A stretch of 64,000 nt of DNA from contig JBEKHC010000007.1 in NCBI GenBank assembly GCA_050012475.1, forward strand, positions 16,586 to 80,585, read 5' to 3'. Numbering within the stretch: the stretch's first letter is position 1; each line of letters opens with the position of its first letter. The position numbers are program-made. Shown one piece after another: positions 34,601-40,600 of this stretch. The stretch is from Candidatus Velthaea sp. (GTDB lineage: Bacteria; Vulcanimicrobiota; Vulcanimicrobiia; Vulcanimicrobiales; Vulcanimicrobiaceae).

Positions 34601-37600
34601 GCTTGCACGCGCCGAACTCGTGCTGAGCGCGCCGGACGAAACGATCGGGCTGGCCGAATTGCGCGAAGCCTGGTCCGCGCCGCTGCGTGACTTTTACGGA
34701 ACGGCCGCGTGACCGCGCGCGTCGCCGTGCCGGTCTTCCCCGGCACCAATAGCGAAGACGAGACCGTCCGGGCGCTGCAAGCCGCCGGGCTCGCTGCCGA
34801 AGCCGTGCACTGGAGCCGGGGCGGCCGGGCATTGCAGGCGTTCGACGCGTTCGTTTTGCCGGGCGGATTCGCGTACGAAGACCGGGTGCGCGCCGGTGCC
34901 GTCGCGGCCCACGACGAGATGACCGATGCGGTGATCGCCGCGGCGCAAGCGGGAAAATTCGTGCTCGGCATCTGCAACGGCGCTCAGATTCTGCTCGAGA
35001 CGGGCCTGGTGCCGGGGACCGGGCCGATCCGCCGGCCGACGGCCGCGTTTACCCCCAATCGCGACGGCGGCCGCTATCTGTGCCGGCACGTCTACGCGCG
35101 CTTCGCGGTCGCGCCCGAGCGCGTGCCGGCGCTGGGCGGTCTTGCGCCGGGCGCCGTCATCCCGATGTGGCTCTCGCACGGCGACGGCCGGCTGGCGGCG
35201 CGGCCCGATGAACTCGCCCGGCTCGCTGCGGGCGGCTACGTCGCCTTCGTCTATTGCAACGCTGCAGGCGAGCCGGCGGCGGCGCCGCAAGGCTCGGCGC
35301 TCGACTGCGCGGCACTGACCAACGCCGCGGGAACGGTGGTCGCGATCATGCCGCACCCCGAACGCGACGCTTGGACCTTCATGCATCGCGACGGACCCGC
35401 GAAGTTGCGCGCGCGCGGCGTGACCGGCGAGATGCTGGCGCCCGCGGGCGGCAGTGTGTTCTTCAGCGCGTTCGCGCAAGCGCTGCGCAGCGGCGCGGTG
35501 CGCTGATGGAGGTGCTCGAGAAGGCGTTTGCCGTCGCGCTGACCATCCCCGACAACGAAGCGTTCACCGCGCTCGAAACGCTGCGCCGGTTGGGCTTTGT
35601 GCTGGGCGGCGTCCGCCGCGCCGACATCTGGTCCTTCGAGGTGGACGCGCCGGCGGCCGCGGCGCTGGCCGACACGATTGCGACCATCGAGACGCTTTTC
35701 AATCCCAACAAACACGAGATCGCCGAGCGGCCCGGCGCGCGGCCGCAAGCCGGCGAGGTCTGGATCGCGCCGTTCGACGACCCGGGCGTGGGCAGCATCG
35801 GCCGCGGCTCGATCCCCGGCGTGCACGCGGTACGGCGGCGGGTCGCCTGGCAACTGCTCGATGAGTCCGGCAGCATCGTCGCGCCAAACGTGCTCGAGCG
35901 CGCCGTTGAGACATTTCTGTGTAACCCCGCGTTTCAGAAAGCAATAGGATGTGGATCGATGAACTGGTGACGCGATGAGCATGATGGTGGAGACGCAACG
36001 CGATCAGCTAGGCGAGGACGCCGAAGCGCGGCAATTCTACACGATCGCTACACTGGGGTCGCACTCCGCCCTGCAGATCCTCAAAGGCGCGCACGACGAG
36101 GGCTTCCGCACGCTGGCGATCGCGACGCGTGACACCGAGCGTTTGTATCGAAGCTTCGCCTTCGTCGACGAAGTCATCGTGATCGCTCAGTACTCCGACT
36201 TCATCAAGCTCGTGCCCGATCTGGAGCGGCGCAAGATCATCGTCGTTCCGCACGGTTCGTTCGTCGCTTATCTGTCGCTCGACGATCATAAGAAGATGCG
36301 CATTCCGTACTTCGGCAACAAGGCGGTGCTCGATTGGGAAGCCAGCCGCGAACTGCAGCGTCAGTGGCTGACGCGCGCCGGTCTGCGCGTACCGCGTCAG
36401 TTCCGCACCGGCGCCGAAATCGATCGCCCTGTGATCGTCAAGCTCTACGGCGCGCAAGGCGGCAAGGGGTACATGTTCCTGCGCGACGCGCTGGATTTTG
36501 AAGAACGCGCCAGCTTGCTCGCCCGGCAGAATTATATTCTGCAAGAGTACATCATTGGCGTGCCGCTCTACATTCACTATTTTTATTCGCCGCTGACCGG
36601 CCGGCTCGAGATCATGTCGATGGACCGGCGCTACGAGACCAACGTCGATTCGCTGGGGCGCATCCCGTCGCGTGCGCAAGAGAGCATGGACATCGACCCG
36701 TCGTATGTCGTGGTCGGCAACTCACCGCTGAGCCTGCGCGAATCGATGTTGGCCGAAGCGTATCGGATGGGTGAGGACCTGGTGCGCGTCAGCCAGGAAA
36801 TCTGCGGTCCCAAAGGGCTGTTCGGCGCATTCTGCATCGAAACGATCATCACGCCGGACGCCCAGTTCTACATCATGGAAGTTTCGGCGCGCATCGTCGC
36901 GGGTACCAATTTGTTCATTGACGGTTCGCCGTATTCGTATCTCAATTACAGCGAGCCGATGTCGACCGGCCGCCGCATCGCGCGCGAAATCAAAAACGCT
37001 TTGCTCACCAATTCGCTGAGTGCCGTGCTGGATGACTCGAGCGTTCTTTGAGCGCGTGAAGCGCGCGGGCTGCGCGGCCGTCGCGGCAGCCCTGGTTGCG
37101 GGCGCACCTCCGGCGGCGCAAGCCGAGCTGCAGACCGACCCGATGGTGCTCTACGGCACGATGAAGGCGGCGTACGATAAAGGCATCGCGTCGGGCTGGC
37201 ACTTGGGCGACGAGCTGGATTATTTCTCAACCGTGCTCGATGCCGGCCGCGCGTTCGAACTGCGCCGCCGCGACGATCCGGAGAATGCCGCCCTCAAGGG
37301 CACGGCCGTCGATTTGGCCGCGCGGTTGCACTACGATCCGCTCATCAATCGCGATGCCGCCGAGTGGTACGTTCGGCTGGCGGCGCAAACCTACGCCAAC
37401 GATCCCGCCCGCGGCGCCGCCGCGCAGGCGCTGCTTGCCAAGCTCGACGCTGAGGACGCGAATTTCACCACGCTCGCGCACGACGCCGATGCCGACGCGA
37501 GTGCCAACGCCGCCAACTATGCCGGCGACGTCCAAGCGTTGCTCGGCCGGGTCGACGCCGACGTGCGTGCCTACGATTTGACGAAGGATTCGTATTACCG

Positions 37601-40600
37601 GTCGCTGGCGCTGCAGCGCGCGGCGGAGCCGGATTTCCCGATCGCACTCGTGCCGCCCGAAACGGCGAAGGACCTCAACGTGTTCACCGATGCCGCGCGG
37701 CTCGGGCGGATCGGCTACTCGACGAACGATCAGGAAGCGGCCAAGGCGATCGTTTCGCATCGCGCCACCGCGAAAACGATCCCGACGATCGGCCACGTCT
37801 TGTCGCACCAAGCGTACTTGGTCGTGACGGCGCCGGCCGACGAGTATTTCGGTCAAACCAAGCTCTCGCCGCTGGGCGTGCGCAATGCGCTCCTGCACAT
37901 CACGAAATATCTCGACGCCGGGTGGGGATCGCAGATGACCGGCGAGGCGCTCTACGTCGTCGATGCACTCGACGATTGGCGTCAGCAATATCCGCGCGAC
38001 TACGAGCTCCCGCGGTTGCTGCTCAATGCCTACAAAACACTCGACCGCATCAACTCACCGCAAGCCCGCGACGCCGAGATCCGGGTGAAGCGGCTGCTCA
38101 CCGTCGAATACAACGCCACGGACGAAGCACGGTCGCTGCTTGAAGGCTGACGTCGAGCGTCCATGACCGCCGCCTTCGACGTTCGTGCTGCGCTCGCGAC
38201 CTACGAGCCGGCGGCGCTGACGCTGTGCTCGATCGGCAGCCACTCGGCGCTCGAAGTCGCCGCCGGCGCGCGCGCCTGCGGTCTGCGCAATCTCATCGTT
38301 ACCGAGAGCGGCCGCGAGCGCACGTACACCGAGCACTATTTTCGCAAGCCCGCTCCGCCGCGCGGCTGCGTCGATGCGGTCTTGGCGCTGGCGAAGTTCA
38401 GCGACGTGCTCGATCCGGGCGTTCAAGACCGGCTGCTGGCGCAGAACGTGCTCTTCGTGGCGAACCGTTCGTTCGAGGTGTATTTGCGCCAACGCTACAC
38501 GTACCCCGAGATCGAACGCGGGATGCGCGTGCCGTTCTTCGGCTCGCGCACGCTGCTGCGCGCCGAAGAGCGCGACGAGGCCGACAACCAGTATGCGCTG
38601 CTCGAGCGCGCCGGGGTCCGCTATCCCAAACAATTTGCCCACGCCCGCGACATCGACCGGCTGTGCATCGTCAAGGCGCCCCACGCGAAGGTCTCATTCG
38701 AACGCGCGTTTTTCCTGGCGCGTTCGAGCGCGGATTACGAACGGCAGTGCGCGCTGTTGCTGGCCGACGGCATGGTCGATGAAACCGGCTTGCGCGGGGC
38801 GGTGATCGAGGAGTTCGCGCTCGGGCCGTCGGTCAATTTGAATTTCTTCTATTCGCCGATGCTGGGTGAACTCGAACTCATGGGCACGGACACGCGCCGT
38901 CAAACCAACCTCGAGGGGCTCAAGAATCTGCCGTTCGCACAAGCGCAGGCGCTCGCCGACGAGCCGGTGCGTTTGGAAGAAGCCGGACATATCTCGGCGA
39001 CGCTGACCGAGTCGATGCTGGAAAAAGCCTTCGCGATGGGCGAACGGTTCGTGCGCGCGACGCAGGCGAAGGGCCGGCGCGGCATCATCGGCCCGTTCGC
39101 GCTGCAATGCATCATCGTCGCGGGCCCGCCCAAGGACTTCATCGTCTACGACGTCTCGCTGCGCATCCCGGGCTCGCCCGGCACGCGCTTCACCCCCTAT
39201 TCGTCGTACCGGTGGGGCCGCGACGTTTCGGTCGGCGAACGCATCGCGATGGAAGTGGTCTGGGCGCGCGACGCCGGCCGGCTCGCGGATATCTTGACCT
39301 AACCGGATTCGCGGCGCTGAACGCGCTGCGAATCCATGGCGTTTGACGCTGCGCGCCAAGCGGCGCGCGTCCCTTGGCGTTGCGCGCAAGCTGCGCGTTC
39401 GGACCTACATGTTTGGGCTGCGCGGTCGGCGACGGTCGACCGTTCTCGGCGCGGCCCGCGCGGCGTTCGCCAAGCGGTGTCTGCGCTGCGGCGTTGGGGA
39501 ATGGCAGGACGTGCGTTCAAGTCGGAATCCAAACGAAGGGAGCGCCGAACGGCTATCCCTAAAGGGCGGCGTATGCATCGATCTTTTTAGAGGAGAACTC
39601 CATGAGCGTTTATCGCGTGACTGAGATCATCGGTACGAGTTCGAAGAGCTGGGAGGATGCGGCCCAGACGGCGCTGTCCACCGCCGCCGGAACATTGCGC
39701 GACTTGCGGGTCGCCGAAGTCGTCGAACAGGACATTGCCCTCGACGAGAAAGGCGGGATCGAAGCGTTCCGTATCAAGTTGAAGATCAGCTTCAAGTACG
39801 AAAAAGAGTAACGCCGCTTCGACGTGAAGCGGTGCGCGCGTCGCGAACGAGGCCGATGTTCCGGCTCGAGCCGGCATCGCCAGCGTTCGCGGCCAGCCGG
39901 CGAACGCGTTCTACTGAAACCGGTGGGCATGCCCGGTGGGGCGGGGAGAGGTGTATGTCGACAAATGCGGCGTTTACGATCCAGCACGTTGGAAGTTCCG
40001 AGGTGGTCGAAACCGATCTCACGGGCGTCGATCTGCTCAACGTTCCGCTGCTCAACAAGGGCACGGCATTCTCTGAAGACGAGCGCGACGCATTTCTGCT
40101 GCACGGTCACTTGCCACCGCACGTGGGTACGCTCGAAGAACAGGTGCGGCGGCGAATTCAAGCGCTGCGCGGTTTGGGTTCCGATCTGGAGCGCTATCTG
40201 TTCGTTCGCACGCTTCAGGACACGAACGAAACGCTCTTCTACGCGCTCGTGACCAAACACCTCGAGGAGCTCAATCCGATCGTCTACACGCCGACGGTCG
40301 GTGCGGCGTGCCAGCGGTTCAGCCAGTTCTTTGCCCGGCCGCGCGGTTTGTTTCTGAGTTGGCCGCAGCGTGCAAAGATCGAGCAAATCTTGTCCAATAC
40401 CCGGTTCGACGCCGTCGAGGCGATCGTGGTGACCGACGGCGAGCGCATTTTGGGCTTGGGCGATCAGGGCGCGGGCGGCATGGGAATTCCGATCGGCAAG
40501 CTTGCGCTCTACACCGCGTGCGCCGGTCTGCATCCCCGAACCACGCTGCCGGTGATGCTCGACGTGGGCACCGACAATGCGGAGCGGTTAGAGGATCCGC

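Follow-up and report, generated by a model that had tools for sequence, protein, structure and literature searches.

Two PurP-family ATP-grasp proteins of cluster Ib and cluster II types retained in the purine operon of the bacterial class Vulcanimicrobiia

The purine operon of Candidatus Velthaea sp. raises the question of why a bacterium equipped with PurH keeps two ATP-grasp proteins of the PurP family, and what they do beside it. We analyzed a stretch of 64,000 nucleotides (the window; contig positions 16586-80585), in which both open reading frames, here called purP-A and purP-B, are intact. The positions 35975-39302 given for the pair already count along the window: the profile matches to PF06973 at contig 53112 and 55318 map there, and no PurP lies at the site shifted by 16585. 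The relevant features, in window coordinates, are as follows.

29818..31179, + strand: purB, over the TIGR00928 cut-off; reading frame open from 29710
31112..32395, + strand: purC, fused as in the animal-type PAICS with a class II PurE half, from PDB matches and alignment
32388..34712, + strand: purL, small type, long-branched; over the NF002290 and TIGR01736 cut-offs, and trees
34709..35506, + strand: purQ, 265 aa; TIGR01737 at 175.6 bits against a cut-off of 177.8
35506..35970, + strand: purS, double-length, with two PurS folds in one chain from structure matches; its start overlaps the purQ stop
35975..37051, + strand: purP-A (358 aa), ATP-grasp protein of the PurP cluster Ib (PurP II) type; from Pfam, NCBIfam and PDB matches, residues and dN/dS
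37020..38150, + strand: passenger gene, likely start 37056; all-helical product with a signal-peptide-like N terminus
38163..39302, + strand: purP-B, PurP cluster II (PurP III) type, 379 aa; from Pfam, PDB match, alignment, model and dN/dS
46195..49192, + strand: guaA and purD, directly 3' of purP-B in many relatives and displaced here by inserted genes
53343..54779, + strand: purF-like amidotransferase of the same cluster, from Pfam GATase and PRT matches and synteny
62403..63443, + strand: purM-like, from Pfam AIRS and AIRS_C matches; the contig, 80585 nucleotides long, ends just beyond

Both proteins indeed belong to the PurP family, as a preliminary description had stated, since each carries DUF1246 and DUF1297 over its full length, far above the Pfam cut-offs (E 3e-41 and 3e-66 for purP-A, 2e-30 and 2e-51 for purP-B). 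The best NCBIfam PurP models gave E 1.5e-113 for purP-A (379 bits against a cut-off of 590) and 8.2e-61 for purP-B (206 bits against 556), reproducing the earlier values of 1e-113 and 8e-61, and neither protein passed any of the six PRK13278 equivalog models. Among PDB entries, purP-A best matched Pyrococcus furiosus PF1517 (2r84, E 6e-100), followed by Methanocaldococcus jannaschii MJ0136 (2r7k, E 9e-87), and purP-B best matched 2r7k (E 6e-45). No solved structure of a cluster II protein was found; the AF2 model of purP-B (pLDDT 92.7) shares the MJ0136 fold, with a TM score of 0.86 to 2r7m.

The order purB-purC-purL-purQ around the pair was confirmed, with purS added to it. The double-length purS has no Pfam match, and its structure matches in the atlas were PF02700 clusters (TM 0.75-0.86 over about 140 residues). 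PurC is an animal-type PAICS fusion common to the sister classes and not archaeal; its best PDB match was 4ja0 (E 5e-63; human 2h31, E 6e-53), and its PurE half is degenerate in the alignment. The reported archaeal affinity of PurL and PurQ has weak support: PurL is 33-38% identical alike to PurL from archaeal contexts, Bacillota, Actinomycetota, alphaproteobacteria and the sister classes, but in a 17-row tree without CPR rows it grouped on a long branch with two archaeal-context PurL (96/95), and a clade with the sister classes was rejected (p-AU 0.024). The passenger gene has no Pfam or NCBIfam family, its AF2 model (pLDDT 87.6) gave no fold match at E <= 0.001, and its atlas clusters are confined to Vulcanimicrobiota, with TPR-like leads under 0.9. 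It is missing, with purP-A and purP-B adjacent, from 3 of 80 family-level loci and from the fetched loci of families f2 and f3. We thus rejected it as a third subunit; it is a gene confined to Vulcanimicrobiota that the pair does not need. An Rfam scan of the window and nine loci returned only two tRNAs and no riboswitch, and no promoter or terminator signal stood above chance. Contigs from one study, drawn from three of its RNA runs, match parts of purP-A, the passenger gene and purP-B at up to 100% identity, a kind of match that cannot show transcription.

The pair is a core trait of the class, as had been proposed. The PurP family occurs in all 144 class genomes at least 85% complete (including the unpublished G116 and G166), 142 of them with two matches, two with three (one of these a contig-edge split) and none with a single one, and in 0 of 57 genomes from other classes of the phylum. 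The claim of exactly two copies therefore stands, and their closeness holds for most loci: purP-B lies within 8 kb of purP-A in 62 of 80 loci, 10 were too short, and in 8 it does not, although in all five of these that were checked, including the unpublished G206, it was found elsewhere in the genome. The two genes are thus retained together even where they lie far apart.

As also described earlier, purP-A has the loop and Asn of cluster I, and purP-B the loop and His of cluster II. Passages of PMC3261824 name His27 and Arg314 of MJ0136 as formyl contacts, Ser94 and Ser266 as phosphate contacts and Asn258 as the carboxamide contact. All active-site residues named in those passages are present in purP-A and constant in 89/89 class sequences; it keeps His30, Ser95, Asn249, Arg255, Ser257, Glu302, Arg306 and the GGKG loop, with the cluster I mark Asn249 (MJ Asn258) and the pair His30/Arg306 (MJ His27/Arg314) each constant in all 89. 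The short loop reads AQGGKG, its length and GGKG being constant (89/89), and its first position is Gln in 79, Ala in 5 and His in 2, where the published consensus (K/R)GG(K/R)G has Lys or Arg; other cluster I rows vary likewise (Lys 36, Gln 11 of 68). In purP-B, His27, Ser103, His276, Ser284 and Arg334 are kept, with His27/Arg334 constant in 63/63 and the cluster II mark His276, at the MJ 258 position, in 63/63 class and 67/68 other cluster II rows. By alignment and counts, its loop is two residues longer, constantly so in 63/63 class sequences, and has lost basic residues and glycines, and the ATP-grasp residues Lys171, Glu216, Gln315 and Asp330 remain. The position of MJ Arg264, which we take to be a phosphate-binding residue, holds Thr (57), Val (3) or Leu (3) in the 63 class sequences against Lys or Arg in 68/68 others, whereas Tyr occupies the Ser94 position in 57 of the 68 non-class rows. 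The residues at which the cluster II phosphate site has changed differ between lineages.

The assignment of purP-A to cluster Ib rests on its single cluster II partner, its place outside cluster Ia in the tree and its best PDB match PF1517, which itself is not in the tree. Against cluster Ia stand the two paralogues, the separation from the Methanocella protein in the tree and a score of 352 bits on NF009780, whose cut-off of 556 a Methanocella-type Ia protein passes at 643.

Selection on the pair is strong. Over three genome pairs, purP-A had a dN/dS of 0.03-0.06, the lowest of ten operon genes (the nine others, 0.07-0.32), and purP-B 0.12-0.13; no gene of the operon is more constrained than purP-A, whose product shares 71% identity with its counterpart in G122 of family f3, where PurH reaches 53% and PurB 58%. 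Assembly contamination or decaying foreign genes are hardly credible as an explanation. Contamination of the source MAG stands at 5.3%, but the family is class-wide, the same operon recurs at 80 loci, single-contig genomes also have it, the GC3 of the pair (0.78 and 0.85) is within or close to that of its neighbours (0.80-0.86), and dN/dS is far below 1.

The pair coexists with purH, as had been noted: PurH was found in 32/32 class genomes tested, on a separate locus in the source genome (C46:8927-10534), and passed the NF002049 cut-off in 5/5 class proteins scanned. A degenerate PurH was rejected as the reason for the pair, since the catalytic motifs persist in 21 rows, of which G033 is truncated and divided between two frames; the sole change, in 18/21 rows, is at the HQ following RYGENP, and the IMP cyclohydrolase domain is intact. 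FolD was present in 32/32 genomes and FolP and FolK in 4/4. PurN was found but divergent, over the TIGR00639 cut-off in only 2/32; in 5 loci it still follows purM and retains the Asn-His and Asp motifs. AIR carboxylation is covered by PurE with PurK, or else by an intact PAICS. Neither PurT over cut-off, nor Fhs, nor PurO was found in the five genomes searched for each. With all these enzymes found, a missing step that the pair would fill was also rejected; the pair adds to PurH because PurH, the folate genes and PurN are all present.

We tentatively favor the reading that the pair is a two-subunit, folate-independent AICAR formyl ligase using formate and ATP, which runs parallel to PurH and goes back to a single early gain. 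The Ib and II genes would have been gained once, before Vulcanimicrobiia diversified, from a pool of PurP pairs that CPR bacteria have in common with DPANN archaea, with vertical inheritance from then on. purP-A and purP-B would form one mixed oligomer, in which A supplies a complete MJ0136-type active site and B, with nucleotide and formyl contacts kept and its AICAR site eroded, is the needed partner. Formate and ATP would give formyl phosphate and then FAICAR without folate, which the cyclohydrolase half of PurH could close to IMP. In favor of this reading we count the constant active site of purP-A, the joint retention of the two genes in all class genomes, the constraint on purP-A and the altered phosphate site of purP-B. 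Passages of PMC3261824 describe only two assayed Ib/II proteins, both inactive; PMC6486802, in part, identifies PF1517 and PF0421 as each inactive alone and offers a heterohexamer as speculation. A prediction of the A+B complex gave weak support (score 0.43 against 0.00 for the best of three controls, at least 88% of contacts agreeing between runs, partner pLDDT at least 85); the score mark is reached by 116/157 solved and 2/215 mismatched pairs, and at 0.60 or below by only 18/157 and both mismatches. This pass may stem from likeness to the solved PurP homo-oligomers.

Several observations were counted against the formyl-ligase reading, namely the inactivity of the only two Ib/II proteins assayed, the redundancy with PurH kept so long under strong selection, the scores under all six NCBIfam cut-offs and the Gln that starts the purP-A loop; nor was a formate source identified, though no search was aimed at one. 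Since PurH and the folate route cover this step and selection is yet strong, another purine-linked reaction is possible: the formyl donor could be a different one, as could the imidazole or purine ribotide, or the pair could formylate GAR where PurT is absent. PF1517 binds ATP and AICAR yet is inactive, and another formyl source has been proposed (PMC6486802, in part); the missing PurT and the low PurN scores point the same way. We nevertheless regard this chemistry as somewhat unlikely, as PurN keeps its motifs and place, purP-A keeps the AICAR carboxamide contact, and PurE with PurK or the intact PAICS leaves no missing step for the pair.

A division of labor, in which purP-A formylates AICAR and purP-B closes FAICAR to IMP, so that together they stand in for the whole of PurH with no need of folate, is unlikely in our view. 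It was speculated upon in PMC3261824, in a passage noting that Crenarchaea and Pyrococci have the pair and no known IMP cyclohydrolase, and it would fit the absence of PurO and the purP-B His at the carboxamide contact, a possible general base. The same source, however, calls the phyletic pattern imperfect and untested, many archaea have the pair alongside PurO, PurJ or PurH (passages of PMC6486802), purP-B keeps four ATP-grasp residues superfluous for a cyclohydrolase, and the class PurH retains its own cyclohydrolase domain. That purP-A acts alone as a homo-oligomer like MJ0136, with purP-B a separate nucleotide-sensing or regulatory protein, is very unlikely: its whole active site, its evolution two to four times slower than that of purP-B and the loci with purP-B at least 8 kb away would suit this, but PF1517, the closest solved relative, is inactive alone (PMC3261824, in part), and Ib and II always co-occur in archaea, according to published passages, and in the class.

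As to origin, the preliminary description called the pair archaeal, which is right for the two published types, but the closest relatives found belong to CPR bacteria and DPANN archaea rather than to classic archaea; judged by sequence, "archaeal" overstates the origin. The best labelled matches of purP-A were CPR (Patescibacteria, Peregrinibacteria; 51%), then Nitrosocosmicus, Diapherotrites and Methanocella (41-45%); those of purP-B were Micrarchaeota (51%), then Peribacteria, Peregrinibacteria and Woesearchaeota (44-48%). In the purP-A tree, the class clade (100/100), with an inner order that fits the families, is sister to a CPR-named clade (100/98), and an AU test gave p 0.011 against a clade of the class with Diapherotrites/Micrarchaeota, a group named after an earlier quick tree had been seen. 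purP-B falls together with Micrarchaeota, Woesearchaeota/Nanoarchaeota and CPR in a clade supported at 95/95, where no one sister group stands out (62/93). The purP-A, purP-B and PurL trees are careful ones on smaller sets, beside two large quick PurP trees; P0006 was left out of two trees as a divergent duplicate. The true sister of purP-A may be of Pyrococcus type, because Thermococcales are missing from the PurP trees (as are Microgenomates and cluster I rows labelled Woesearchaeota), the query that brought in the CPR rows was the highest-ranking representative outside the class, and these rows score best on NF009779, whose 333 positions equal the length of PF1517. We consider it quite unlikely that purL, purQ, the double purS and both purP genes were taken in as one block from a CPR- or DPANN-like donor, and that the pair, with purP-A the most constrained pur gene, takes AICAR all the way to IMP without folate and carries much of the flux; if so, cluster II would be the IMP cyclohydrolase so far missing in Crenarchaeota and Pyrococcus, and the case would mean a lasting core-metabolism transfer from symbiont-type lineages into a free-living class.

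Compared with the archaeal Ib and II pair (PF1517, PDB 2r84-2r87, and PF0421), the two paralogues are likewise kept together near purine genes, share Asn versus His at position 258, the short versus longer loop and the kept His27 and Arg314 (PMC3261824, in part), and coexist with PurH, as in Methanosarcinales (passages of PMC3261824 and PMC6486802). They differ in their host, a free-living bacterial class with a full folate route, in the Gln start of the purP-A loop and the lack of a basic residue at MJ Arg264 in purP-B, and in having CPR and DPANN proteins as nearest relatives. MJ0136 (PDB 2r7k-2r7n), of cluster Ia and the sole FAICAR synthetase whose activity has been shown, is a single gene working with PurO, unlike the two genes here without PurO. 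The CPR/DPANN pairs, known from database records and not found in print, are nearest by score and tree, but in the class the pair is fixed and accompanied by PurH. PurH itself would catalyze the same step if the formyl-ligase reading holds, with an unrelated fold, 10-formyl-THF and another locus. We therefore describe a new host for a known archaeal pair, not a new kind of system. The pair concerns over a third of the surveyed archaea (PMC6486802, in part), and its role has been a question since 2008-2011; its fixation under strong selection in a free-living class shows that it remains of use to cells that have PurH and folate. What is gained is a better test system, with proteins from non-thermophiles and, in the phylum, the cultivated member Vulcanimicrobium alpinum (PMC10582173, in part), and a correction of range, not a new mechanism.

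The "archaea only" label, although so published (PMC6486802 and PMC4177761, both in part), thus ends outside CPR as well, and the class is not the sole bacterial carrier, as the CPR matches show; because the best matches include CPR bacteria, the approximately 640 other bacterial carrier genomes are key context. No PurP was found in 72,556 plasmid records or, with one CPR query, in viral contigs, and the literature searched held no report of bacterial PurP, although supplementary KO tables of CPR/Eremiobacterota genome papers may list the gene. Other bacterial phyla were rejected as close carriers, since records labelled Limnocylindria, Armatimonadota and Janthinobacterium share match coordinates with family-level genomes of the class; a Rhodospirillales-labelled record, not matched to a class genome, has the operon of the class at 84%. 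Proteins of this kind are already named in NCBI records for Ca. Velthaea and Peregrinibacteria.

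We surveyed 201 genomes of the phylum (completeness at least 85%; the unpublished G116 and G166 included) for the PurP family. As a result, a match was found in 144 of 144 Vulcanimicrobiia genomes and in 0 of 57 from the rest of the phylum, with two matches per genome in 142 of the 144. The PurP pair is real and class-defining, as the preliminary description had claimed in calling it core to the class. In the window, the finding starts at 35975 and ends at 39302 (window coordinates), and the features are as follows:

31112-32395, purC, an animal-type PAICS fusion with silkworm 4ja0 and human 2h31 as top PDB matches
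35506-35970, double-length purS with two PurS folds, missed by Pfam and NCBIfam
35975-37051, + strand, purP-A (A), 358 aa, intact ORF, DUF1246 and DUF1297 far above cut-off
38163-39302, + strand, purP-B (B), 379 aa, intact ORF, DUF1246 and DUF1297 far above cut-off
39603-39812, small ORF, dodecin-like by eye

The genes purB, purC, purL, purQ and purS precede A and B as one run whose ends touch or overlap, and A and B terminate this run, within the purine operon to which they had been assigned. Farther along the window are guaA, purD, purF and purM, which in relatives come immediately after. Structural look-alikes of the double PurS were found in Eiseniibacteriota, Elusimicrobiota, Planctomycetota and Fidelibacterota clusters. 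Among 80 loci, B was adjacent to A in 3, one gene away in 50, otherwise within 8 kb in 9 and farther away in 8, 10 loci being too short to place it; the description of the two genes as close together therefore holds for 62 of the 80 loci, and fails for the 8 beyond 8 kb. In 5 of 5 distant cases checked (including the unpublished G206), B was located elsewhere in the genome. In three genome pairs, A showed the lowest dN/dS among ten operon genes (0.03-0.06), and B (0.12-0.13) was on par with core enzymes.

The NCBIfam PurP scores reported earlier were reproduced for A and B, all below cut-off. The closest solved relatives are PF1517 for A (E 6e-100) and MJ0136 for B (E 6e-45), only three PurP sequences, none from cluster II, having a solved structure. 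We applied the residue and loop criteria for PurP clusters from passages of PMC3261824, in MJ0136 numbering. For A, all 89 class sequences share Asn at 258, a short loop, His27, Ser94, Ser266 and Arg314, and most have Gln as loop residue 1. For B, all 63 share His at 258, a loop longer by two residues, and again His27, Ser94, Ser266 and Arg314. Since A also falls outside cluster Ia by NCBIfam model scores and tree, the pair consists of cluster Ib and cluster II, which bears out the proposed cluster I and cluster II types.

MJ0136 is known to use formate and ATP to formylate AICAR, with formyl phosphate as the intermediate, as cited in a passage of PMC3261824, and a passage of PMC6486802 puts forward a heterohexamer of the PurP pair as speculation. 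The reading that we rank as most likely, still tentatively, is that A and B would assemble as a mixed oligomer, in which formate and ATP would yield formyl phosphate for the formylation of AICAR. Weak support came from the predicted A and B complex, which scored 0.43 (best control 0.00), a level as low as which 18 of 157 solved pairs passed, while 2 of 215 mismatched pairs passed, both this low. Partner pLDDT was at least 85 and contacts agreed in at least 88% between runs; the score may be explained by solved PurP homo-oligomers. That A works alone appears improbable. At the position of Arg264, which we take to be a phosphate-binding residue, class B proteins have Thr, Val or Leu; outside the class, this position is Lys or Arg in all 68 cluster II rows, and the Ser94 position is Tyr in 57 of them. 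The cluster II phosphate pocket has thus been altered differently in different lineages, while the ATP-grasp and formyl contacts are retained. That B is instead an IMP cyclohydrolase seems rather unlikely, and formylation by the mixed oligomer is preferred.

We then investigated the surrounding route, with pathway searches in 44 of the 201 genomes and later searches in 36 or 5. The PurH transformylase domain was present in 32 of 32 class genomes, confirming that the pair coexists with PurH, and in 3 of 12 from other classes. Five scanned class PurH passed NF002049 (546-590 bits; cut-off 402) and missed TIGR00355, as did three sister-class PurH, and class PurH retains the catalytic motifs. FolD was found in 44 of 44 genomes, and FolP and FolK in 5 of 5. 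PurN is divergent with its motifs kept; in the five loci read its gene sits downstream of purM, and this genome has it at the end of a contig. Searches of 5 genomes turned up no PurT, Fhs or PurO. As all pathway steps are covered, the PurP pair is an addition to the route. The possibility that the pair performs other chemistry ranks second, slightly ahead of the cyclohydrolase, and is likewise doubtful.

In PurH (G000:C46:8927-10534; L122-L141), the usual HQ after RYGENP is missing in 18 of 21 aligned rows; class and sister-class PurH share only 35-37% identity, and PurH of genome G033 is split across two frames. PurN (G000:C39:102766-103314; L144-L153) carries a 17-residue insertion after the Asn-x-His motif, common to a sister class. 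In genomes of other classes (G001-G023), the PurH domain was absent from 9 of 12 and the small PurL match from 11 of 15 tested, and many of these may be purine auxotrophs.

The origin of the pair was examined in careful trees of 30 rows each. Proteins named Peregrinibacteria and Patescibacteria were reached through the top non-class representative of A, and CPR, Woesearchaeota, Nanoarchaeota and Micrarchaeota proteins through those nearest B. For A, the class forms one clade (100/100) with inner branching that follows families, sister to a CPR-named clade (100/98); for B, the class clade (100/100) lies inside a CPR and DPANN clade (95/95), with CPR/Woesearchaeota as a weak sister (62/93). As most rows lack names, Thermococcales are absent, and the CPR rows of A score best on the model of PF1517 length, we left the donor unnamed; we infer the transfer direction solely from PurP absence in other classes. 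Of the "archaeal signature", the Ib and II types hold, but the nearest relatives found are CPR and DPANN proteins. As for the archaeal affinity ascribed to PurL, a tree of 17 rows, with a long branch and no CPR rows, rejects its grouping with sister classes (p-AU 0.024) and places it beside two PurL from metagenomes that we take to be archaeal on account of their purF/purF' context. The class operon also occurs in records labelled Limnocylindria, Armatimonadota, Janthinobacterium and Rhodospirillales (L043, L048, L054, L058); three of the four correspond to family-level genomes, and the labelling thus seems to be in error.

PurP is treated as archaea-only in passages of PMC3261824, PMC6486802, PMC4177761, PMC6797443 and PMC1852104, in agreement with the preliminary description, and our literature search, supplements aside, found no report of bacterial PurP. 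Bacterial PurP proteins are already named in database records, and the Ib and II pair is already known as a kind. The present analysis contributes the 144/144 versus 0/57 split, the measured strength of selection, the phylogenies, the finding that the folate route is intact, and the change in B that is specific to the class. For a specialist this is a mild surprise, the gain being a test system for the PurP pair.

The PAICS-type PurC fusion, compared in the window gene and L094, L095, L097, L098, L101 and L135-L137, is common to the class and sister classes, and the operon is therefore not wholly foreign. The state of its PurE half varies: it seems to be intact in sister classes and family f3, lacks the motif His in f2, and in f1 is degenerate, with 23 residues deleted. 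A separate PurE was found in 27 of 27 cases in f1 and f2, and PurK in 3 of 3; PurK was not found in the f3 genome G122. In this pattern, class II PurE is replaced in stages by PurE and PurK.

The gene between A and B (37020-38150) is a passenger, absent from f2 and f3. Its product is conserved, helical, probably exported and restricted to the phylum, with an invariant APADEYFG motif and dN/dS of 0.12-0.20; family and fold searches gave no match. Several relatives (L066, L074) have a cytochrome bd oxidase-like gene (by eye) between the passenger and B, and a thiol peroxidase-like gene downstream of B. In this genome, inserted genes at 39603-46983 separate B from guaA, among them a malic enzyme, a protease-like ORF without Pfam match and a 1336-aa AAA and HD-domain protein. 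A GC-rich metagenome contig (L088, 3-1471; P0006) carries two cluster I-like genes in tandem, one 62% identical to A and the other divergent, with Asn at the His27 position and an altered P-loop.
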